DNA of 10,792 nt from a virus. Taxonomy: Duplodnaviria > Heunggongvirae > Uroviricota > Caudoviricetes. Location: IMG/VR virus record IMGVR_UViG_2585427750_000031. The stretch is one strand, 5' to 3'. The notes beneath the pieces were generated by a model. It was not told the DNA's origin and did no database searches. It saw nothing but the letters and a program-made list of their open reading frames with translations. The position numbers and the translations under genes are program-made. Positions 1 through 10,792 of the stretch are shown here, piece after piece. The first letter of the stretch is position 1. Each line of letters begins with the position of its first letter.

Positions 1-285
1 ACACGGCAGTTTGCCCGGATGTTGGGGCTTGAACCGAAGAACACGGCGGTGCGGAGTCCGGAGAGTAACGGCATAGCAGAGAGCTTCGTGAAAACGATAA
101 AGCGTGACTACATCAGTATCATGCCCAAACCAGACGGGTTAACGGCAGCAAAGAACCTTGCAGAGGCGTTCGAGCATTATAACGAATGGCATCCGCATAG
201 TGCACTGGGTTATCGCTCGCCACGGGAATATCTGCGGCAGCAGGCCAGTAATGGGTTAAGTGATAACAGGTGTCTGGAAATATAG
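1..285 (+). CDS. insD: IS2 transposase OrfB (InsD-like), C-terminal fragment; 5' end lies outside the window
   Basis: Frame 1 is open from base 1 (no stop before the listed Met at 19) to TAG at 283-285. The translation ...[20 protein letters not shown]...[18 protein letters not shown]... is a typical rve/DDE integrase-core C-terminus of IS3-family transposases. Confidence 0.8.
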
Positions 286-296
286 GGGCAAATCCA
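256..296 (+). repeat. IS2 right terminal inverted repeat (IRR)
   Basis: Terminal ~40 bp of the element, ending TAGGGGCAAATCCA at 283-296. The exact inner boundary is approximate. Confidence 0.6.
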
Positions 297-537
297 ATAC
301 ACCAAAACTGAGTCAGATTCACGTTATGTGAGAGACATGCGGCTGGGCGGTGCATCTACATATAAACCAGCAAATAATGGTACTACATGGACGCATCAGG
401 CTCCGTCAGGTTGCGTATATACCGGCATTATTGTTCAGGATACCGGCTCAAACTCTGCCGATAACATTGGTGGCGTATATTACAGACCGGTGCAGAAATA
501 CATTAACGGGACATGGTATAACGTGGCGCAGGTATAA
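297..537 (+). pseudogene. H: 3' remnant of a phage tail-fibre gene (P2 H-like), truncated by the IS2 insertion
   Basis: Frame 1 stays open straight out of the IS2 end to TAA at 535-537. The translation (...GASTYKPANNGTTWTHQAPSGCVYTGIIVQDTGSNSADNIGGVYYRPVQKYINGTWYNVAQV) looks like a tail-fibre C-terminal receptor-binding region. It sits immediately upstream of a tail-fibre assembly gene, as H-G does in P2. Confidence 0.6.
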
Positions 538-540
538 TTT

Positions 541-1068
541 ATGCAGCATTTAAAAAATATTACGGCGGGGAATCCAAAAACGGTTGAACAATATCAATTG
601 ACAAAGGACTTTGATGTTGTCTGGTTTTTTTCAGAAGATGGTAAGAACTGGTACGAAGAACAAAAGTATTTTGCTGATGACACGATAAAAATAGCGTACG
701 ACAAAGATAATATCATCCACTATGTGGAAAAGGATGTGACAGCTATCAGACCGGATGGATTAAGTGTTGTTGAAGTGGCGGATATTACTGCTAACCGACG
801 GGCGGACATTTCAGGGAACTGGATGTTTAAGGACGGCAAAGTGATTAAACGCATTTATACGGCAGAGGAATTACAGCAGCAGGCAGAAATTCGGAAAGCC
901 AGACTTCTTGCAGATGCTGAATCCGTGATTTTGCCGCTGGAGCGCGCGGTCAGACTGAACATGGCAACAGATGAGGAGCGTAGCCGACTGGAATCATGGG
1001 AACGCTACAGCGTTCTGATCAGTCGTGTGGATCCTGCAAATCCTGAATGGCCGGAAATGCCGCAATAA
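541..1068 (+). CDS. G: Tail-fibre assembly protein (P2 gpG-like Tfa chaperone)
   Basis: 175-aa ORF. The C-terminal half (...[42 protein letters not shown]) is the characteristic conserved tail-fibre-assembly motif. Position directly after the tail-fibre gene. Confidence 0.9.
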
Positions 1069-1129
1069 GTTGTATGAACTCTTGTGTGAGCTTACATACC
1101 TATAGAACAGAGTAAAGCCTAATCTGACA

Positions 1130-1153
1130 GTCCGCTCTGTGCCAGGAGCGGAC
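1130..1153 (+). other. Stem-loop (8-bp stem GTCCGCTC / GAGCGGAC, 8-nt loop) about 60 bp downstream of G; possible end of the fibre operon transcript
   Basis: Perfect inverted repeat read directly from the sequence. There is no U-tract after it, so it is not a canonical intrinsic terminator. Confidence 0.25.
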
Positions 1154-1388
1154 ATAACGACACGTTAGTTAGAAATCTCAAGACCAATTAGGTTGGATAC
1201 TTACATGTATACTATTGCCTAACGATACTACCCTATCAACCTCATGGTTTATAGGCGGGGGGGAGAGCCAATCGAACGCTATCGTACGTTTTTATGCTGT
1301 CTACCCTAGACCCCAAGTAGACATGAATCTTACCTGATTTCCATACGAGGGCGACGTTGATCATCCAGCTTTAGTGCGAGCACTGAAC

Positions 1389-1417
1389 TTAACATTTACC
1401 AGCAATAGTGATATTTT
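1389..1417 (+). promoter_or_regulatory. Candidate sigma70 promoter for the cargo protease gene (TTAACA - 17 bp - TG-n-TATTTT)
   Basis: -35-like TTAACA at 1389-1394 and extended -10 TGaTATTTT at 1409-1417 with 17-bp spacing, in an AT-rich stretch about 45 bp upstream of ATG 1462. By-eye motif match only. Confidence 0.3.
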
Positions 1418-1461
1418 CTACAAAGAAAAATATATGGAATAACGTCATCGCGGGTACAAAA

Positions 1462-2454
1462 ATGACTATAAAAAAAACATATGTAACACCAACAGAAATA
1501 GTGAAATATTTTTATGACAAACCGGAAAACGATAACGTAAAAGAGAGAAAAACAATTGAGAGCCTGACCCGTCTCAAACCTGAGTGGGAAAATACTCTCG
1601 ATATGATGAAGTTAATACGCAATTGTGAAAAGCTAGCAACTGAAGGTATTTTAATGGAATTATCTTCAGGACATACTCTTTTGGACCGTTGCTATTTCGC
1701 ACCGAATTTCAATGAATCAGATGCGAAATATGGAAAGTATGATTTTATAGCTGATGGATTTGAGTCAATCATAGACCGCCTTAGTCCTTCCGTTTTACCT
1801 GTTGTTGTTGAAAAAAGTGATGGTTCACATGATCTTGGTACTAGTTTTATTGTTGGGAATAACCACACGATATTTACAGCCAGACATGTTATTGAAGACA
1901 TGAAGAGTATCAGGATACTTAGAGCTGGTGGTGAGGCTTTACCAATACATAAAATCTTTGTATCTAACGATGAACGTATTGATATCGCTTTAGTTTTCAC
2001 AACCATTCCGAATGAAGATAATATTCAACCACTTAAGGTCTCAACCAAAGCCTCGGTACTGGATGAAATTTTATCAATAGGATTTCCACCCATTCCAGGA
2101 TTTGATGCATTAAAGTTATATGACGTTTCGCATATAAATTCGTTTGTCCGACTGTCAAAGGGGCGAATTGTTGGTTCTGGTCACTCTTACTTAGATTCAC
2201 AAGACTTTTTATTATTCAATGCTAGGGTTAAGGGGGGGAATAGCGGTGGCCCTATAATTAACAAATACGGCTTTGTTGTTGGTATGCTTGTACAAATACC
2301 AATATCATCTGAGGACAGTTCAAAGATTGATAACCTTGGATATGGTATAGCTGTAACAGGAAAAAGCCTGCTGGATGCCATTACATTTACAGAAAATGGC
2401 CGCGAATTAACACTCACCGACCGAGGAAATGGAGAATATTCAACTCTAGCATAA
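1462..2454 (+). CDS. Two-domain protein: N-terminal domain of unknown function (~120 aa) plus C-terminal trypsin-like (S1 / chymotrypsin-fold) serine protease; candidate cargo/defence gene
   Basis: Long ORF (track 1408..2454). The C-terminal half carries an ordered His/Asp/Ser triad in the usual motifs: TARH(142)VIED, ERID(174)IALVF, GGNS(261)GGPII, numbered from ATG 1462. No N-terminal signal peptide and no PDZ domain. Start chosen at ATG 1462 because GTG 1408 overlaps the candidate promoter; 1408 remains possible. The gene is strongly AT-rich compared with the flanking phage genes. Confidence 0.8.
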   Translation: MTIKKTYVTPTEIVKYFYDKPENDNVKERKTIESLTRLKPEWENTLDMMKLIRNCEKLATEGILMELSSGHTLLDRCYFAPNFNESDAKYGKYDFIADGFESIIDRLSPSVLPVVVEKSDGSHDLGTSFIVGNNHTIFTARHVIEDMKSIRILRAGGEALPIHKIFVSNDERIDIALVFTTIPNEDNIQPLKVSTKASVLDEILSIGFPPIPGFDALKLYDVSHINSFVRLSKGRIVGSGHSYLDSQDFLLFNARVKGGNSGGPIINKYGFVVGMLVQIPISSEDSSKIDNLGYGIAVTGKSLLDAITFTENGRELTLTDRGNGEYSTLA

Positions 2455-2929
2455 ATGATATTATTAATTAAGTTGTACTAACTCAGTTTAAATGAATCAA
2501 GCATCCCCGTAACTTTGCCTGAAAAGGCTCATCGAGGGATGCACATTGTACGGATGTGTGAAAACTAAATCGGCTTTGTCACTTGGATTCGAGGGGAAAA
2601 CTGAACTGAAAGCGATAAAAACGTCTAAAAAATCGTTTCGCAGACAGATGCACCCGATTCAAGCCATTTTGAGGAAGGCTTTCTGCCTTTTATATTTATA
2701 TTAATCATAAGCTTATTCCATTGGTGTACGATATCGTGCTTTGCCCCTCATCTCCCAGATAACTAATTAGCCTTAAAATTACTCATGTGTTTCTGCCGGT
2801 TAAAATTATATGGTTTTCATTTACAATAGTCTCAAGTCCGCTCTTCGCTCAAAGCAGACTGTCAGATTTGATAGCATTTGGGCTATGTAAATTGTCAGGC
2901 GGAAAATGAGTGAGTACAAATCAGGACAG

Positions 2930-2957
2930 GCGGGCGAATTGCCCGCATTTTCTTTAT
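2930..2957 (+). terminator. Rho-independent terminator closing the cargo segment, upstream of the FI late promoter
   Basis: GCGGGC-gaatt-GCCCGC hairpin (2930-2946) followed by ATTTTCTTTAT. Confidence 0.5.
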
Positions 2958-2958
2958 C

Positions 2959-3030
2959 TGTTGTTTCATCCCCTGACCAGCCAGGTCAAATAGCGTCTCA
3001 TGCTCTGCACAACAGAAAATAGTTGCACCC
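2959..3030 (+). promoter_or_regulatory. Region expected to hold the Ogr-activated late promoter of the FI-FII-E-T-U-D operon (P2 PF equivalent)
   Basis: P2 synteny predicts a late promoter here. It contains a perfect dyad TGACC-agcca-GGTCA (2974-2988) and the distal pair TGTTGT (2959-2964) / ACAACA (3009-3014). I could not find an exact TGT-N12-ACA match, so the precise site is unresolved. Confidence 0.3.
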
Positions 3031-3051
3031 ATTAACCACGGAGTTAAACGG

Positions 3052-4242
3052 ATGAGTGACTATCATCACGGTGTGCAGGTGCTGGAGATTAACGACGGCA
3101 CCCGCGTCATTTCCACCGTATCCACGGCCATTGTCGGCATGGTCTGCACGGCCAGCGATGCGGATGCGGAAACCTTCCCCCTCAATAAACCGGTGCTGAT
3201 TACCAATGTGCAGAGCGCAATTGCAAAGGCCGGTAAAAAAGGCACGCTGGCGGCATCGTTGCAGGCCATCGCCGACCAGTCAAAACCGGTCACCGTTGTC
3301 GTGCGTGTGGAAGACGGCACCGGCGACGACGAGGAAACGAAACTCGCGCAGACCGTTTCCAATATCATCGGCACCACTGACGAAAACGGTCAGTACACCG
3401 GACTGAAAGCCCTGCTGGCGGCGGAGTCGGTAACCGGTGTTAAACCGCGTATTCTTGGTGTGCCGGGGCTGGATACCAAAGAGGTGGCTGTTGCACTGGC
3501 ATCAGTCTGTCAGAAGCTGCGCGCTTTCGGATATATCAGCGCATGGGGCTGTAAAACCATTTCCGAGGTGAAAGCCTACCGCCAGAATTTCAGCCAGCGT
3601 GAGCTGATGGTCATCTGGCCGGATTTCCTCGCATGGGATACGGTCACCAGTACCACCGCCACCGCGTATGCCACCGCCCGTGCGCTGGGTCTGCGTGCCA
3701 AAATCGACCAGGAGCAGGGCTGGCATAAAACGCTGTCCAACGTCGGGGTAAACGGTGTTACCGGCATCAGCGCATCTGTATTCTGGGATTTGCAGGAGTC
3801 CGGCACCGATGCTGACCTGCTTAACGAGTCAGGCGTCACTACGCTGATTCGCCGCGACGGTTTCCGATTCTGGGGTAACCGTACCTGCTCTGATGACCCG
3901 CTGTTCCTCTTTGAAAACTACACCCGCACCGCGCAGGTGCTGGCCGACACGATGGCTGAGGCGCACATGTGGGCGGTGGACAAGCCCATCACTGCAACGC
4001 TGATTCGCGACATTGTTGACGGCATCAATGCCAAATTCCGTGAGCTGAAAACAAACGGCTATATCGTGGATGCGACCTGCTGGTTCAGCGAAGAATCCAA
4101 CGATGCGGAAACCCTCAAGGCCGGAAAACTGTATATCGACTACGACTATACACCGGTGCCTCCTCTTGAAAACCTGACCCTGCGCCAGCGTATTACCGAT
4201 AAATACCTGGCAAATCTGGTCACCTCGGTTAACAGCAATTAA
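3052..4242 (+). CDS. FI: Contractile tail sheath protein (P2 gpFI)
   Basis: 396-aa ORF, the same length as P2 FI. GGAG Shine-Dalgarno 8 nt upstream. Gene order FI-FII-E-T-U-D follows. Confidence 0.95.
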   Translation: MSDYHHGVQVLEINDGTRVISTVSTAIVGMVCTASDADAETFPLNKPVLITNVQSAIAKAGKKGTLAASLQAIADQSKPVTVVVRVEDGTGDDEETKLAQTVSNIIGTTDENGQYTGLKALLAAESVTGVKPRILGVPGLDTKEVAVALASVCQKLRAFGYISAWGCKTISEVKAYRQNFSQRELMVIWPDFLAWDTVTSTTATAYATARALGLRAKIDQEQGWHKTLSNVGVNGVTGISASVFWDLQESGTDADLLNESGVTTLIRRDGFRFWGNRTCSDDPLFLFENYTRTAQVLADTMAEAHMWAVDKPITATLIRDIVDGINAKFRELKTNGYIVDATCWFSEESNDAETLKAGKLYIDYDYTPVPPLENLTLRQRITDKYLANLVTSVNSN

Positions 4243-4254
4243 GGAGCCTGACCG

Positions 4255-4773
4255 ATGGCAATGCCGCGCAAACTCAAGTTAATGAACGTCTTTCTGAACG
4301 GCTACAGCTATCAGGGCGTCGCGAAGTCCGTCACGCTGCCAAAACTGACCCGTAAGCTCGAAAACTATCGCGGTGCGGGGATGAACGGCAGCGCACCGGT
4401 AGACCTCGGCCTTGATGACGATGCGCTGTCAATGGAGTGGTCGCTCGGTGGCTTCCCGGATTCGGTTATCTGGGAGCTTTACGCCGCAACCGGTGTGGAT
4501 GCCGTACCGATTCGTTTTGCAGGCTCTTACCAGCGCGACGATACCGGCGAAACGGTGGCCGTCGAGGTGGTCATGCGTGGCCGTCAGAAAGAAATCGATA
4601 CCGGCGAGGGTAAACAAGGAGAAGACACCGAGTCGAAAATCTCCGTGGTCTGCACCTATTTCCGGTTGACGATGGACGGTAAGGAGCTGGTCGAAATCGA
4701 CACCATCAACATGATTGAGAAGGTGAACGGCGTCGACCGGCTGGAGCAACACCGCCGCAATATCGGCCTGTGA
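4255..4773 (+). CDS. FII: Tail tube protein (P2 gpFII)
   Basis: 172-aa ORF, the same length as P2 FII, directly after FI with an AAGGAG Shine-Dalgarno. Confidence 0.95.
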   Translation: MAMPRKLKLMNVFLNGYSYQGVAKSVTLPKLTRKLENYRGAGMNGSAPVDLGLDDDALSMEWSLGGFPDSVIWELYAATGVDAVPIRFAGSYQRDDTGETVAVEVVMRGRQKEIDTGEGKQGEDTESKISVVCTYFRLTMDGKELVEIDTINMIEKVNGVDRLEQHRRNIGL

Positions 4774-4780
4774 TTTTCAT

Positions 4781-4801
4781 CCGGTCAGCCTGGCTGACCG
4801 G
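4781..4801 (+). other. GC-rich stem-loop (9-bp stem CCGGTCAGC / GCTGACCGG, 3-nt loop) between FII and E; possible attenuator or RNA-processing element
   Basis: Perfect inverted repeat starting 8 nt after the FII stop. No U-tract follows, so it is not a canonical terminator. Confidence 0.35.
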
Positions 4802-4829
4802 TTAACCCCGATTCAGAAGTGAGAAAACC

Positions 4830-5105
4830 ATGAACAAAGAAAACGTCATTACCCTGGATAATCCGGTCAAGCGTGGTGAACAGGTTATCGAACAGGTCAC
4901 GCTGATGAAACCCAATGCCGGGACGCTGCGCGGTGTCAGTCTGGCTGCGGTCGCGAACTCTGAAGTCGATGCACTGATTAAGGTGCTGCCGCGCATGACG
5001 GCACCGATGCTGACCGAGCAGGAAGTCGCCGCGCTGGAACTGCCTGACCTTGTGGCGCTGGCCGGTAAGGTGGTCGGTTTTTTGTCGCCGAACTCGGTGC
5101 AGTGA
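4830..5105 (+). CDS. E: Tail assembly chaperone (P2 gpE)
   Basis: 91-aa ORF, the same length and position as P2 E. The slippery heptamer lies six codons before its stop. Confidence 0.9.
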   Translation: MNKENVITLDNPVKRGEQVIEQVTLMKPNAGTLRGVSLAAVANSEVDALIKVLPRMTAPMLTEQEVAALELPDLVALAGKVVGFLSPNSVQ

Positions 5106-5257
5106 CGTTTCCGAAAAATCTCTCGGTCGATGACCTGATGGCGGATGTGGCAGTGATATTTCACTGGCCGCCATCAGAACTGTATCCCATGAGCCTGACC
5201 GAACTCATCACATGGCGCGAAAAGGCGCTCCGGCGAAGCGGAAACACGAATGAGTAA
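4830..5257 (+). CDS. E': Tail assembly chaperone frameshift product E+E' (programmed -1 ribosomal frameshift at 5078-5084)
   Basis: After a -1 slip on T-TTT-TTG the reading frame is open from 5084 to TAA at 5255-5257 (57 codons: VAELGAVTFPKNLSVDDLMADVAVIFHWPPSELYPMSLTELITWREKALRRSGNTNE). That gives a 142-aa product overlapping the T start, as described for P2 E'. Confidence 0.75.
5078..5084 (+). promoter_or_regulatory. Slippery heptamer TTTTTTG for the E/E' -1 frameshift
   Basis: Six T then G at 5078-5084, in the E frame as T-TTT-TTG. Confidence 0.75.
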
Positions 5258-7697
5258 CAATGTAAAATTACAGGTATTGCTCAGGGCTGTTGACCAGGCA
5301 TCCCGCCCGTTTAAATCCATCCGCACAGCGAGCAAGTCGCTGTCGGGGGATATCCGGGAAACACAAAAATCACTGCGCGAGCTGAACGGTCACGCATCCC
5401 GTATTGAGGGATTTCGCAAGACCAGTGCGCAGCTCGCCGTGACTGGTCATGCACTTGAAAAGGCACGGCAGGAAGCCGAAGCCCTTGCCACACAGTTTAA
5501 AAACACCGAACGTCCGACCCGTGCTCAGGCGAAAGTGCTGGAATCCGCAAAGCGTGCGGCGGAGGACTTACAGGCGAAATATAACCGCCTGACGGATTCC
5601 GTTAAACGCCAGCAGCGGGAACTGGCCGCTGTGGGAATTAATACCCGCAATCTTGCACATGATGAGCAGGGGCTGAAAAACCGTATCAGTGAAACCACCG
5701 CACAGCTTAACCGGCAGCGTGACGCGCTGGCGCGTGTCAGTGCACAACAGGCAAAACTTAACGCAGTCAAACAGCGTTATCAGGCAGGAAAAGAACTTGC
5801 CGGAAATATGGCCTCAGTGGGCGCTGCCGGTGTGGGGATTGCGGCGGCGGGAACGATGGCCGGAGTTAAGCTGCTGATGCCCGGTTATGAGTTTGCGCAG
5901 AAAAACTCAGAATTGCAGGCCGTGCTCGGTGTGGCAAAAGATTCCGCCGAAATGGCCGCGCTCCGCAAACAGGCGCGCCAGCTCGGCGACAATACCGCCG
6001 CCTCAGCGGATGATGCGGCCGGTGCGCAGATTATCATTGCGAAAGCGGGTGGAGATGCTGCGGCTATTCAGGCGGCAACGCCGGTCACGCTGAATATGGC
6101 ACTGGCGAATCAGCGGTCGATGGAAGAAAACGCGCAACTGTTGCTGGGGACTAAGGCATCCTTTCAACTGTCAAATGATGATGTCAGCCATGTGGGCGAC
6201 GTGTTGTCGGCAACGATGAATAAGTCGGCGGCTGATTTTCAGGGACTCAGTGATGCACTGACTTACCTCGGTCCGGTTGCGAGGACGGCAGGTGTAAGTC
6301 TTGAACAGGCAGCGGCCATGACAGGTGTGCTGCATGACAATAACATCAGGGGGTCAATGGCGGGGACGGGTGGCAGTGCCGTTGTCACCCGATTACAGGC
6401 ACCGACTGGAAAAGCATGGGATGCACTCAAAGAGCTTGGCGTTAAAACCTCGGACAAAAAGGGAAATATGCGTCCGTTGTTCACCATTCTGAAAGAGATT
6501 CAGGCCAGCTTTGATAAACACAAGCTGGGAACGTCTCAGAAGGGGGAATACCTTAAAACCATTTTTGGTGAGGAAGCCCTGAAATCAGCGAACGTTTTAC
6601 TGGCAGCGGCTGCAAGCGGAAAACTGGATAAGCTGACCGCCACACTGAAAGCCTCAGACGGTAAAACGGAAGAGCTGGTTAAAATCATGCAGGACAACCT
6701 CGGCGGTGACTTTAAGGAGTTTCAGTCCGCTTATGAAGCGGTGGGGACTGACCTGTTTGACCAGCAGGAAGGCGCACTGCGTAAGCTCACGCAGACGGCC
6801 ACAAAGTATGTGTTAAAACTCGACGGCTGGATACAGAAAAACAAATCACTGGCGTCAACCATTGGCCTAATTGCCGGTGGCGCGCTGGCGCTTACTGGCA
6901 TCATCGGTGCCATTGGTCTTGTAGCCTGGCCGGTTATCACCGGCATCAATGCCATCATCGCGGCAGCAGGCGCAATGGGGGCAATCTTCACGACGGTTGG
7001 CAGTGCTGTTATGACCGCCATCGGGGCGATTAGCTGGCCGGTTGTGGCCGTGGTGGCCGCCATTGTCGCCGGGGCGTTGCTTATCCGTAAATACTGGGAG
7101 CCTGTCAGCGCATTCTTTGGCGGTGTGATGGAAGGGCTGAAAGCGGCATTTGCGCCGGTGGGGGAACTGTTCACGCCACTTAAGCCGGTGTTTGACTGGC
7201 TGGGCGAAAAGTTACAGGCCGCGTGGCAGTGGTTTAAAAACCTGATTGCCCCGGTCAAAGCCACCCAGGACACCCTGAACCGTTGCCGTGATACTGGCGT
7301 CATGTTCGGGCAGGCACTGGCTGACGCGCTGATGCTGCCGCTTAATGCGTTCAACAAACTGCGCAGCGGAATTGACTGGGTACTGGAAAAACTCGGTGTT
7401 ATCAACAAAGAGTCAGACACACTTGACCAGACCGCCGCCAGAACTCAAGCCGCCACGTATGGCAGCGGTGGTTATATTCCGGCGACCAGCTCTTATGCAG
7501 GCTATCAGGCTTATCAGCCGGTTACGGCACCGGCTGGCCGCTCTTATGTGGACCAGAGTAAAAACGAATATCACATCAGCCTGACGGGTGGTACTGCGCC
7601 GGGGACACAGCTTGACCGCCAGTTACAGGATGCGCTCGAAAAATACGAGCGGGATAAACGTGCGCGCGCCCGTGCCAGCATGATGCATGACGGTTAA
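5250..7697 (+). CDS. T: Tail tape measure protein (P2 gpT)
   Basis: 815-aa ORF, the same length as P2 T. N-terminal coiled-coil-like, Ala/Gln-rich sequence and a C-terminal hydrophobic Gly/Ala-rich segment typical of tape measure proteins. Its start overlaps the E' end. Confidence 0.95.
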   Translation: MSNNVKLQVLLRAVDQASRPFKSIRTASKSLSGDIRETQKSLRELNGHASRIEGFRKTSAQLAVTGHALEKARQEAEALATQFKNTERPTRAQAKVLESAKRAAEDLQAKYNRLTDSVKRQQRELAAVGINTRNLAHDEQGLKNRISETTAQLNRQRDALARVSAQQAKLNAVKQRYQAGKELAGNMASVGAAGVGIAAAGTMAGVKLLMPGYEFAQKNSELQAVLGVAKDSAEMAALRKQARQLGDNTAASADDAAGAQIIIAKAGGDAAAIQAATPVTLNMALANQRSMEENAQLLLGTKASFQLSNDDVSHVGDVLSATMNKSAADFQGLSDALTYLGPVARTAGVSLEQAAAMTGVLHDNNIRGSMAGTGGSAVVTRLQAPTGKAWDALKELGVKTSDKKGNMRPLFTILKEIQASFDKHKLGTSQKGEYLKTIFGEEALKSANVLLAAAASGKLDKLTATLKASDGKTEELVKIMQDNLGGDFKEFQSAYEAVGTDLFDQQEGALRKLTQTATKYVLKLDGWIQKNKSLASTIGLIAGGALALTGIIGAIGLVAWPVITGINAIIAAAGAMGAIFTTVGSAVMTAIGAISWPVVAVVAAIVAGALLIRKYWEPVSAFFGGVMEGLKAAFAPVGELFTPLKPVFDWLGEKLQAAWQWFKNLIAPVKATQDTLNRCRDTGVMFGQALADALMLPLNAFNKLRSGIDWVLEKLGVINKESDTLDQTAARTQAATYGSGGYIPATSSYAGYQAYQPVTAPAGRSYVDQSKNEYHISLTGGTAPGTQLDRQLQDALEKYERDKRARARASMMHDG

Positions 7698-7711
7698 GGA
7701 GGTGACGAAAA

Positions 7712-8191
7712 ATGATGCTCGCGTTAGGTATGTTTGTTTTTATGCGCCAGACGCTGCCACACCAGACCATGCAGCGTGAATCAGATTATCGCTGGCCGTC
7801 AAATTCCCGTATCGGTAAACGGGATGCCTTTCAGTTTCTCGGTGTGGGTGAGGAAAACATCACACTTGCCGGCGTGCTTTATCCCGAACTGACCGGCGGG
7901 AAGCTGACGATGACCACGCTCAGGCTGATGGCAGAGGAAGGCCGGGCGTGGCCGTTGCTGGATGGCACCGGCATGATTTACGGCATGTATGTCATCAGCA
8001 AGGTGAGTGAAACAGGGAGTATTTTCTTTGCAGATGGCACACCCCGAAAAATTGATTTTACGCTGTCGCTCACCCGCGTTGATGAATCACTGGCCGCGCT
8101 TTATGGCGATATCGGTAAACAGGCGGAATCGCTCATCGGTAAGGCTGGCAGTATGGCGACTAAATTCACGGGTATGACGGGGGCGGGATAA
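7712..8191 (+). CDS. U: Tail protein (P2 gpU)
   Basis: 159-aa ORF, the same length and position as P2 U. Strong AAGGAGGTGA Shine-Dalgarno upstream. Confidence 0.93.
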   Translation: MMLALGMFVFMRQTLPHQTMQRESDYRWPSNSRIGKRDAFQFLGVGEENITLAGVLYPELTGGKLTMTTLRLMAEEGRAWPLLDGTGMIYGMYVISKVSETGSIFFADGTPRKIDFTLSLTRVDESLAALYGDIGKQAESLIGKAGSMATKFTGMTGAG

Positions 8192-9354
8192 TGCTGGATG
8201 CGCTGACATTTGATGCAGGCAGTACGCTGACGCCGGATTACATGCTGATGCTCGACAGCAGGGATATTACCGGCAATATCAGCGACCGTCTGATGAGCAT
8301 GACCCTGACGGATAACCGGGGCTTTGAGGCTGACCAGCTTGATATTGAACTGAACGATGCCGACGGGCAGGTCGGGCTGCCGGTTCGTGGCGCTGTCCTG
8401 ACGGTGTATATCGGCTGGAAAGGTTTTGCCCTGGTATGCAAAGGGAAATTTACCGTTGATGAGGTTGAACACCGGGGCGCACCGGATGTGGTCACCATCC
8501 GCGCCCGGAGTGCAGATTTTCGCGGGACGCTCAATTCCCGCCGTGAAGGCTCCTGGCATGACACCACGCTCGGTGCGATTGTTGAGGCGATAGCCTCCCG
8601 TAACTGGCTGGAAGCCAGTGTCGTTCCATCACTGGCCGGAATTAAAATCCCGCACATCGACCAGTCGCAGGAGTCTGATGCAAAATTCCTGACCCGCCTT
8701 GCTGAACGCAACGGCGGTGAGGTGTCGGTAAAAATGGGAAAACTGTTGTTTCTCAAAGCGGGGCAGGGGGTGACGGCCAGCGGTAAAAAAGTCCCGCAGG
8801 TCACCATAACCCGCAGCGACGGCGACCGCCATCATTTTGCGATTGCTGACCGTGGAGCCTATACCGGCGTAACGGCAAAGTGGTTACACACCAAAGACCC
8901 GAAGCCGCAAAAGCAGAAGGTAAAACTGAAACGCAAAAAGAAAGAGAAACACCTGCGCGCACTGGAGCACCCGAAAGCGAAACCAGTCACGCAGAAGAAA
9001 GCGCCAAAAGTACCGGAAGCGCGCGAAGGTGAATACATGGCCGGTGAGGCTGACAACGTTTTTGCACTGACCACGGTATATGCCACGAAAGCACAGGCCA
9101 TGCGCGCCGCTCAGGCGAAGTGGGATAAACTGCAACGGGGTGTGGCGGAGTTCTCCATCAGCCTGGCTACCGGTCGGGCAGATATTTACACGGAAACACC
9201 GGTTAAAGTGTCAGGCTTTAAGCGCGTCATAGACGAGCAGGACTGGACAATCACTAAGGTGACACATTTTCTGAATAATAGCGGCTTCACGACGTCCTTA
9301 GAGCTTGAGGTCAGGCTTTCTGATGTGGAGTACGAAACCGAAGATGATGAGTGA
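8191..9354 (+). CDS. D: Tail protein D (P2 gpD)
   Basis: 387-aa ORF, the same length and position as P2 D. Its ATG overlaps the U stop codon (TAATG). Confidence 0.93.
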   Translation: MLDALTFDAGSTLTPDYMLMLDSRDITGNISDRLMSMTLTDNRGFEADQLDIELNDADGQVGLPVRGAVLTVYIGWKGFALVCKGKFTVDEVEHRGAPDVVTIRARSADFRGTLNSRREGSWHDTTLGAIVEAIASRNWLEASVVPSLAGIKIPHIDQSQESDAKFLTRLAERNGGEVSVKMGKLLFLKAGQGVTASGKKVPQVTITRSDGDRHHFAIADRGAYTGVTAKWLHTKDPKPQKQKVKLKRKKKEKHLRALEHPKAKPVTQKKAPKVPEAREGEYMAGEADNVFALTTVYATKAQAMRAAQAKWDKLQRGVAEFSISLATGRADIYTETPVKVSGFKRVIDEQDWTITKVTHFLNNSGFTTSLELEVRLSDVEYETEDDE

Positions 9355-9372
9355 TGTTTTTATTTTATCTGT

Positions 9373-9401
9373 TTGTTTTATAAGGATAAATTAACTAAAA
9401 T
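9373..9401 (+). promoter_or_regulatory. Candidate ogr promoter (TTGTTT - 17 bp - TAAAAT)
   Basis: -35-like TTGTTT at 9373-9378 and -10-like TAAAAT at 9396-9401, 17-bp spacing, upstream of ogr ATG 9436. By-eye motif match. Confidence 0.35.
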
Positions 9402-9435
9402 GGCACCATCAACAAAACCGGAAGAGGTGCTCGCG

Positions 9436-9654
9436 ATGTTTCATTGTCCTTTATGCCAGCATGCCGCACATGCGCGTACAAGCCGCTATATCACTGACAC
9501 GACAAAAGAGCGTTATCACCAGTGTCAGAACGTGAATTGCAGCGCCACGTTCATCACTTATGAGTCGGTACAGCGATACATCGTGAAGCCGGGAGAAGTC
9601 CACGCCGTAAGGCCGCACCCGTTACCATCAGGACAGCAAATTATGTGGATGTGA
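9436..9654 (+). CDS. ogr: Late-gene transcriptional activator Ogr (zinc-finger protein)
   Basis: 72-aa product MFHCPLCQHAAHARTSRYITDTTKERYHQCQNVNCSATFITYESVQRYIVKPGEVHAVRPHPLPSGQQIMWM with the C-x2-C ... C-x4-C zinc-binding pattern; it matches P2 Ogr as I remember it. GGAAGAGG Shine-Dalgarno upstream. The track ORF (9373) is an upstream TTG extension that I discount. Confidence 0.9.
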   Translation: MFHCPLCQHAAHARTSRYITDTTKERYHQCQNVNCSATFITYESVQRYIVKPGEVHAVRPHPLPSGQQIMWM

Positions 9655-9664
9655 TCACAAAAAT

Positions 9665-9690
9665 AGCCCCTCAGTTGAGGGGCTTATTTA
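9665..9690 (+). terminator. Rho-independent terminator after ogr (end of the prophage late region)
   Basis: AGCCCCTC-agtt-GAGGGGCT hairpin followed by TATTTA, 11 nt after the ogr stop. Confidence 0.65.
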
Positions 9691-9782
9691 TGGTCGATGT
9701 GGACGCTATGTGGACAGTGCTTGATATAAATCCATTTATATCATCAGGTTAGGTGCTTTTTTGTGACACCATCCCTGTCTTC
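9691..9782 (+). other. Prophage right junction (attR side): the phage/host boundary and att core are expected within this interval
   Basis: In an integrated P2-like prophage ogr is the last gene before attR, and host DNA (fieF) follows within ~200 bp. The exact core cannot be determined without the attL end. Confidence 0.4.
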
Positions 9783-9808
9783 CCCCACATGATGTGGGGT
9801 TTTTTTTT
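9751..9808 (+). ncRNA. cpxQ: Possible 3' end of host cpxP mRNA / CpxQ 3'UTR-derived sRNA, including its terminator
   Basis: The sequence GTGACACCATCCCTGTCTTCCCCCACATGATGTGGGG-T9 resembles what I recall of the conserved cpxP 3'UTR/CpxQ. cpxP lies immediately upstream of fieF in E. coli K-12. This is from memory and not verified. Confidence 0.25.
9783..9808 (+). terminator. Rho-independent terminator (CCCCAC-atgat-GTGGGG followed by nine T)
   Basis: GC-rich hairpin plus a T9 tract, read directly from the sequence. Confidence 0.7.
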
Positions 9809-9836
9809 ATCCTCAATTTGCCTGCTGCTTAATGCA

Positions 9837-9863
9837 TTGCAGATGATTTGCTTCCGTTATACT
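9837..9863 (+). promoter_or_regulatory. Candidate fieF promoter (TTGCAG - 15 bp - TATACT)
   Basis: -10-like TATACT at 9858-9863 and -35-like TTGCAG at 9837-9842, about 27 bp upstream of the fieF ATG. The spacer is short, so this is a weak call. Confidence 0.3.
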
Positions 9864-9889
9864 AGCGTCAGTTGATAGCGGGAGTATTT

Positions 9890-10792
9890 ATGAATCAATC
9901 TTATGGACGGCTGGTCAGTCGGGCGGCGATTGCTGCGACGGCGATGGCTTCGTTGCTATTGCTGATTAAAATTTTTGCATGGTGGTATACCGGGTCGGTG
10001 AGTATTCTCGCCGCGCTGGTGGATTCGCTGGTGGATATCGGCGCGTCGTTGACGAATTTATTGGTGGTGCGATATTCCCTGCAACCTGCCGACGATAATC
10101 ACTCGTTTGGTCACGGTAAAGCTGAGTCCCTCGCGGCGCTGGCGCAAAGTATGTTTATCTCCGGTTCGGCACTATTCCTGTTTTTGACGGGTATTCAACA
10201 TCTGATATCTCCAACACCGATGACAGATCCAGGCGTCGGGGTTATCGTGACAATTGTGGCGCTAATTTGTACGATTATCCTTGTCTCGTTTCAGCGTTGG
10301 GTGGTGCGGCGGACGCAAAGCCAGGCGGTGCGGGCTGATATGCTACATTACCAGTCTGATGTTATGATGAACGGCGCAATTCTGCTGGCGCTGGGGTTGT
10401 CCTGGTACGGCTGGCATCGCGCCGATGCTCTGTTTGCATTGGGAATCGGCATCTATATTTTATATAGCGCGTTACGCATGGGATATGAGGCGGTACAGTC
10501 ATTACTGGATCGCGCATTGCCTGATGAGGAACGGCAAGAAATTATTGATATCGTGACTTCCTGGCCGGGTGTTAGCGGCGCTCACGATCTTCGCACGCGG
10601 CAGTCAGGGCCGACCCGCTTTATTCAGATTCATTTGGAAATGGAAGACTCTCTGCCTTTGGTTCAGGCACATATGGTGGCGGATCAGGTAGAGCAGGCTA
10701 TTTTACGGCGTTTTCCGGGATCGGATGTAATTATCCATCAGGACCCCTGTTCCGTCGTACCCAGGGAGGGTAAACGGTCTATGCTTTCATAA
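9890..10792 (+). CDS. fieF: Cation-diffusion-facilitator family Fe(II)/Zn(II) efflux transporter FieF (YiiP)
   Basis: 300-aa product starting [49 protein letters not shown]..., recognisable as E. coli FieF/YiiP, with transmembrane segments and the CDF signature. GGAG Shine-Dalgarno 5 nt upstream. The stop codon is the last three bases of the window. Confidence 0.95.

Follow-up and report, generated by a model that had tools for sequence, protein, structure and literature searches.

Probable insertion of IS2 in the tail-fibre gene H of a P2-like prophage from a single Escherichia coli isolate

The right end of an IS2 element standing directly against the end of a phage tail-fibre gene may mark an ordinary insertion, the edge of a larger rearrangement, or a prophage retained by its host for other purposes. 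This question is raised by a stretch of 10,792 nucleotides, referred to as the window, which comprises bases 1-10792 of the draft contig JOQD01000045.1 (GCA_000713895.1, 33,433 bp; short-read draft). IS2, P2-like prophages, and the disruption of prophage genes by insertion sequences are all well known already. The reading that we consider likely is that IS2 was inserted, in a single isolate, in the tail-fibre gene H of a P2-like prophage that is intact in other respects.

The right junction between IS2 and H

The left part of the window contains the following features:
1..296, + strand: 3′ end of IS2 (IS3 family), by alignment with K-12 IS2A; cut by the contig start
1..285, + strand: C-terminus of the IS2 transposase OrfB/InsD, 94 codons and stop, by translation and Pfam rve_3
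256..296, + strand: IS2 right inverted repeat (IRR), 41 bp, the length being taken from PMC3299598 and PMC3219604
297..301, + strand: predicted right-hand copy of a target-site duplication, ATACA, by analogy with the 5-bp duplications at two complete IS2 copies
297..537, + strand: C-terminal remnant of H (distal tip domain), 79 codons from 298 and stop, equal to residues 671-749 of the intact 749-aa allele

Positions 1-296 align at approximately 97% identity with the right end of IS2A of strain K-12, an annotated mobile element (NC_000913.3 381260-382590). Window position 296 is the same terminal base as in IS2A (...GGGGCAAATCCA), both elements end in ...ATATAGGGGCAAATCCA, and the flanks of the two copies diverge directly past this base; the right terminal inverted repeat and its last base thus agree with reference IS2. 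The OrfB frame closes with a stop codon at 283-285 and matches Pfam rve_3 (E=1.8e-19), the integrase-core (rve) domain; the RefSeq name in matching genomes is ‘IS3-like element IS2 family transposase’. Complete IS2 copies with 5-bp duplications were found in two cases, namely K-12 IS2A (ATTAC) and E275a (GGTAC).

From 297 onward, the window follows the prophage of enterotoxigenic E. coli (ETEC) strain 602354 (locus L002) from its position 12001 onward, base for base and without indels, and window 297-537 is identical to L002 12001-12241. In strain 602354, H is an uninterrupted ORF of 749 aa at 9992..12241, and at the insertion site the intact allele reads ...GGTGC ATACA CCAAA... (uninterrupted reference ...GGTGCATACACCAAAACTG). 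The insertion point lies between codons 670 and 671 of 749; the remnant frame opens at 298, position 297 is the third base of a split GCA codon, and the stop codon TAA occupies 535-537. The cut falls at a conserved ...KPSAGDVGAY/T... boundary, and the tip is removed exactly. The remnant shares 45% identity with the C-terminus of P2 gpH, the final 15 aa being identical. The sequence-only reading had placed the right end of IS2 against an in-frame C-terminal remnant of H, and the alignments with IS2A and L002 bear this out, coordinates included, for the right junction only. Both partners of the junction are directly identified, and on sequence grounds the match is far beyond chance.

Joining of the IS2 end to the H remnant by the assembler was considered, since the assembly is a short-read draft and the contig starts in a multicopy repeat. 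However, the identical IS2/H right junction is present in two assemblies, the one at NCBI and the separately assembled Logan contig L039 (run SRR1186626, 9,526 bp), which begins at window 269 with 28 nt of the IRR followed by the H remnant, and which differs from the window by 3 mismatches in 9,526 bases. The break furthermore coincides exactly with the last base of IS2, which transposition predicts and a chimera would not. Such a misjoin is therefore extremely unlikely. The gpD variant encoded in the window is rare: by exact look-up it was found on 2 contigs only, JOQD01000045.1 and the Logan contig of SRR1186626.

Two short ORFs of 69 and 66 aa at 328/337-537 were considered as genes and rejected. 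In exact look-ups they occur, beyond the source contig, only on short contigs without an IS2 end, and these contigs read continuous H across the insertion site, which makes the ORFs gene-calling oddities; they should be annotated as remnant and not as a gene. The resemblance of CCAAAAC to a Din-invertase crossover site prompted a further candidate, that of the IS2 site as such a crossover site, which was likewise rejected because the crossover repeats of locus L012 lie near H codon 271.

Intact H contains 44-residue tandem repeats (TAQDATTARKGLVQLSSATNS.SETLAATPKAVK.AYDLANGKY), which are present in 4 copies (749 aa) or 3 copies (705 aa) among near-identical prophages; the copy number may truly vary, or short-read assembly may have collapsed some of the repeats. 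Annotation of the gene varies as well. In the RefSeq annotation of strain 120899 (L001, NZ_CP025916.1; 9992-12241), H is split into two partial fragments labelled as pseudogenes. The reading frame there is open all the same and encodes exactly the 749-aa protein of strain 602354, so the label looks like an annotation inconsistency with no lesion behind it. In locus L022, the ORF of H is open, yet no H gene is annotated.

The left side of the element

The first base of JOQD01000045.1 falls within IS2, 296 bp from its right end, and the right limit of the window is exactly the fieF stop codon. The left boundary of the window is an assembly break and has no biological meaning. The same 94-residue OrfB fragment is also the first gene of other draft contigs listed, whose flanks are unrelated; a contig edge inside IS2 is the usual repeat-induced contig break. 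Because the contig begins inside IS2, the record holds neither the rest of IS2 nor the 5′ part of H nor the target duplication, and for the same reason a simple insertion and an IS2-associated deletion or rearrangement are indistinguishable from the record.

A simple insertion would predict a left junction of the form ...GGTGCATACA/TAGACTGG..., which over other sequence spans would read ...GATGTTGGTGCATACA/TAGACTGGCCCCC... or ...GGGAGATGTTGGTGCATACA/TAGACTGGCCCCCTGAATCTCC. The H frame would then read through into IDWPPESPDNQYHLNK and a stop, 16 codons into the left end of IS2. Three chimeras of H(1-671) with IDWPPESPDNQYHLNK, whose H part was taken from the alleles of the closest relatives, were absent from a collection of 15 billion proteins by exact look-up. 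When the junction peptide was used for a homology search, only short fibre fragments were found, with no full-length match and none with the IS2-encoded tail. The 32-mers of the left and right junctions gave 0 matches in the genome_contigs and metagenome_contigs collections; both of these DNA collections also lack the right junction and hence this isolate's record.

These negatives, together with the start of the record inside IS2, are what might be expected if the beginning of H, perhaps along with further prophage DNA, had been deleted, inverted, or moved, leaving a prophage fragment; recombination between IS2 copies or intramolecular transposition could have produced such a structure. However, the left-junction negatives are weak because the 44-aa repeats of H can break or collapse short-read assemblies and because the DNA collections do not hold this isolate's record, so that they are trivially explained. 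Furthermore, the DNA from 297 to fieF is undisturbed and near-identical to that of complete prophages, and IS2 transposition usually yields a simple insertion that duplicates 5 bp of the target. A deletion or rearrangement linked to IS2 is accordingly rated as rather unlikely. Simple insertion, with an ATACA duplication at the left, is most likely.

A comparable event is recorded in E275a (NZ_CP035865.1; L005 6340-7670), in which a complete 1331-bp IS2 flanked by a GGTAC duplication lies in G of a different P2-like prophage. The element is the same, as are its orientation relative to the fibre genes and the H-G module that it entered; its target is G, whereas in the window it is H at the tip-domain boundary, with only the right junction recorded. 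The two hits of IS2 in the H-G module, in E275a and in the window, are independent. The hotspot cargo of the E275a prophage is a HEPN-domain protein.

Downstream genes, cargo, and the age of the lesion

Downstream of the remnant, the window contains the following genes:
541..1068, + strand: gpG, tail-fibre assembly chaperone, 175 aa, intact (Pfam Caudo_TAP, E=1.8e-33; P2 G length)
1462..2454, + strand: cargo gene for a trypsin-like serine peptidase, 330 aa, predicted cytoplasmic (Pfam Trypsin_2, Trypsin)
3052-4242, + strand: FI (Pfam; P2 NC_001895 length)
4255-4773, + strand: FII (Pfam; P2 NC_001895 length)
4830-5105, + strand: E (Pfam; P2 NC_001895 length)
to 5257, + strand: E′ (precomputed Pfam; P2 NC_001895 length)
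5250-7697, + strand: T (Pfam; P2 NC_001895 length)
7712-8191, + strand: U (Pfam; P2 NC_001895 length)
8191-9354, + strand: D (Pfam; P2 NC_001895 length)
9436-9654, + strand: ogr (precomputed Pfam; P2 NC_001895 length)

The F operon and its regulator (3052..9654, + strand) are intact, with fieF beyond ogr. The claim made from the sequence, that no other tail gene is shortened, is correct: each of G, FI, FII, E, E′, T, U, D, and ogr matches its P2 counterpart exactly in length. The likeness to P2 extends to the gene order (H-G-Z/fun-FI...ogr), to the E/E′ slippery site TTTTTTG, which lies inside a 56-nt stretch identical to P2, and to the DNA upstream of FI, which is 86% identical to P2 and includes the P2 pF activator site and start site. 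The window thus carries a P2-like (Peduovirus) tail module, H-G-hotspot-FI-FII-E/E′-T-U-D-ogr, and P2-type phage records share approximately 93-97% DNA identity with the H remnant and G. The prophage is integrated next to fieF/pfkA, and matching prophages are found in enterotoxigenic E. coli genomes. It differs from P2 in the length of H (669 aa in P2 and 749 aa in the intact allele here, with 44-aa repeats), in the interruption of H, and in the replacement of fun(Z) by the trypsin-like peptidase, which lies on the strand opposite to that of fun(Z). An Rfam scan of the window gave 0 matches. In L001 and L002, a 261-aa hypothetical gene lies between S and V (6697-7482, minus strand) and may represent a second cargo slot.

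The Z/fun hotspot between G and FI is enriched in defence genes (PMC9519451; bioRxiv 10.1101/2024.10.15.618418), and look-ups of FI and of the peptidase gave varied cargo at this G/FI hotspot among relatives. Homology to P2 extends approximately 85 nt beyond the G stop (1069-1153), is lost across the cargo, and returns at approximately 2893; these break points, after 1153 and at approximately 2893, mark the edges of the hotspot cassette. A conserved hairpin without a T-run lies at 1130-1153 (GTCCGCTC-N8-GAGCGGAC), and a terminator-like hairpin at 2930-2946 is followed by the pF region before FI (approximately 2893-3051). The peptidase (RefSeq ‘S1 family peptidase’ WP_000152899.1) shows by eye what looks like a His/Asp/Ser triad (FTARHV, IDIALV, GGNSGGP) and lacks an evident signal peptide, and its N-terminal ~110 residues gave 0 Pfam matches. 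PADLOC matches were limited to the protease domain (RT-Protease_XI, LmuA, HamA). The protein is, from its sequence, a candidate single-gene defence protein and a member of no described system. The identical protein is present on 191 contigs, and its cluster has 137 members. An alternative GTG start lies at 1408. In a consensus scan, a promoter-like site (TTAACA-17-TATTTT with an upstream TG, 1389-1417) was found 45 nt before the ATG at 1462.

The cargo is preserved, as had been stated: window 1263-3003, which spans the promoter-like site and the cargo gene, has 0 base differences from L001 and L002. From this preservation a domesticated element had been proposed. In a fuller form of that reading, a fibre-less prophage would be kept under selection for the peptidase or as a tailocin-like particle, and an outward or hybrid promoter of IS2 may contribute to expression of G or the cargo. 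The intact cargo in a defence-enriched hotspot (PMC9519451) and the capacity of the outward -35 of the IRR to form fusion promoters (PMC3219604, PMC9330008) are in its favour. The distribution of the lesion argues otherwise. The junction occurs only in GCA_000713895.1 and one Logan contig; it was found in 0 of 5,426 complete RefSeq E. coli genomes, in which the matches to the H/G part all begin at exactly 297, and it is absent from every other retrieved contig with the cargo and the H region, H being open (749 or 705 aa) in all 9 of the 9 other retrieved loci with the identical cargo protein and the H region. A lesion common to a diverged lineage in which the retained genes stay intact, as domestication would leave, was not found.

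The window is collinear from 297 to 10792, without indels, with prophages that carry uninterrupted H. Locus L018 differs from it at 4 of 10,496 compared bases, and L022 (CP189657.1) at 4 positions before window 9814; H is uninterrupted in both. In L022 (strain 602687), an IS66-family element between ogr and fieF (18458-20793) shifts the register at window 9814. Because relatives at 4/10,496 differences keep an intact H, the event is recent, and the pattern points to a single isolate. Such a small number of differences leaves no time for a signature of selection. The cargo is intact because the event is recent, and its preservation therefore shows recency alone; intact G, cargo, and FI...ogr are expected straight after any IS hit and are no evidence for selective retention. 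Domestication is thus very unlikely.

The proposed effect of IS2 on transcription of G and the cargo can be examined in the same DNA. The right end of IS2 carries an outward-reading -35, which gives rise to a strong junction promoter only if the mandatory spacer of 17 bp is kept (PMC3299598, PMC3219604), and fusion promoters made by IS2 have been described, ampC being one case (PMC9330008). Placed by geometry, the outward -35 would be TGGAAA at 275-280. At 17 bp past it lies TACACC (298-303), which has 3/6 matches to the -10 and lacks the critical final T; the matches are 1/6 at 16-bp spacing and 0/6 at 18-bp spacing. An acceptable -10 at 17 bp, as in a fusion promoter generated by an IS, is hence not present. 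Upstream of 1389, the consensus scan lists no + strand site resembling a promoter, and between IS2 and G none resembling a terminator. A hybrid promoter had been suggested in the sequence-only reading; the mechanism is plausible in general and is not supported here, given that TACACC is the only hexamer at the 17-bp spacing and that the + strand upstream of 1389 is free of promoter-like sites. These results, together with the cargo's own promoter-like site, also weigh against a contribution of IS2 to a domesticated state. That the interrupted H represents a selected state, with the element kept for the peptidase or as a tailocin precursor and with IS2 transcription feeding G or the cargo, is very improbable indeed.

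Expected consequences for the fibre and the prophage

The detached segment of H is homologous to the tip of the Mu fibre S (5YVQ_A 435-503) and to 8JU3_A and 9CUY_c, and over its entire 175 residues gpG aligns with U (5YVQ_B), the tail-fibre assembly protein of Mu (E=7.7e-84). A tip-homologous remnant followed by a gene for a cognate Caudo_TAP chaperone is the arrangement of a tip of the P2 gpH/Mu S type. In Mu, the chaperone binds the distal fibre, ensures its folding and trimerisation, and contributes to receptor recognition (PMC9608196). The likeness to Mu (PDB 5YVQ) is a homology of the module only, between S tip and H remnant and between U and gpG; unlike Mu, the locus has no invertible G-segment or invertase, and the invertase crossover sites of related prophages lie elsewhere than the IS2 site.

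On the preferred reading of a simple insertion, IS2 would have transposed, in a single E. coli isolate, into the H gene of a P2-like prophage that lies beside fieF and is otherwise undamaged, and the transposase genes are oriented as H is. The last 79 codons, i.e., the distal tip that corresponds to the chaperone-bound part in the Mu homologue, would be split from the body of H, and the predicted product would be a fibre shaft without its tip. A fibre defect is likely because the detached segment matches the Mu tip that was solved in complex with its chaperone; by this analogy, a fibre lacking the receptor-binding tip would probably be defective, and the truncated shaft should not form functional fibres. 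In the annotation of P2 (NC_001895), H and G belong to the V operon, with a putative terminator past G, and FI-D are transcribed from the separate, Ogr-dependent pF. Within the V-W-J-I-H-G late operon, G would now be preceded by 1.3 kb of IS2 and would be reached by read-through transcription only; no effect is expected on the F operon and the cargo, each of which has a promoter region of its own. Heads and contractile tails would still be made and adsorption-competent virions would not; from the gene arrangement, we infer polarity on G and a loss of infectivity. Mitomycin C is a poor inducer of P2-like prophages. Fibres could also come, in trans, from a second P2-like prophage, should the genome carry one.

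The interruption of H by IS2 is a real, ordinary mutation and not a new kind of element. The prophage of GCA_000713895.1 should be scored as probably defective and its H as a pseudogene, and the importance of the finding beyond annotation is little. Two cautions follow for similar records: when a window opens in a repeat at the edge of a contig, it cannot reveal whether an IS insertion is a simple one, and the intact neighbours of a fresh IS insertion do not argue for domestication. Of the features in the neighbourhood, the peptidase cargo is of the most interest, and it does not depend on the IS2 event.
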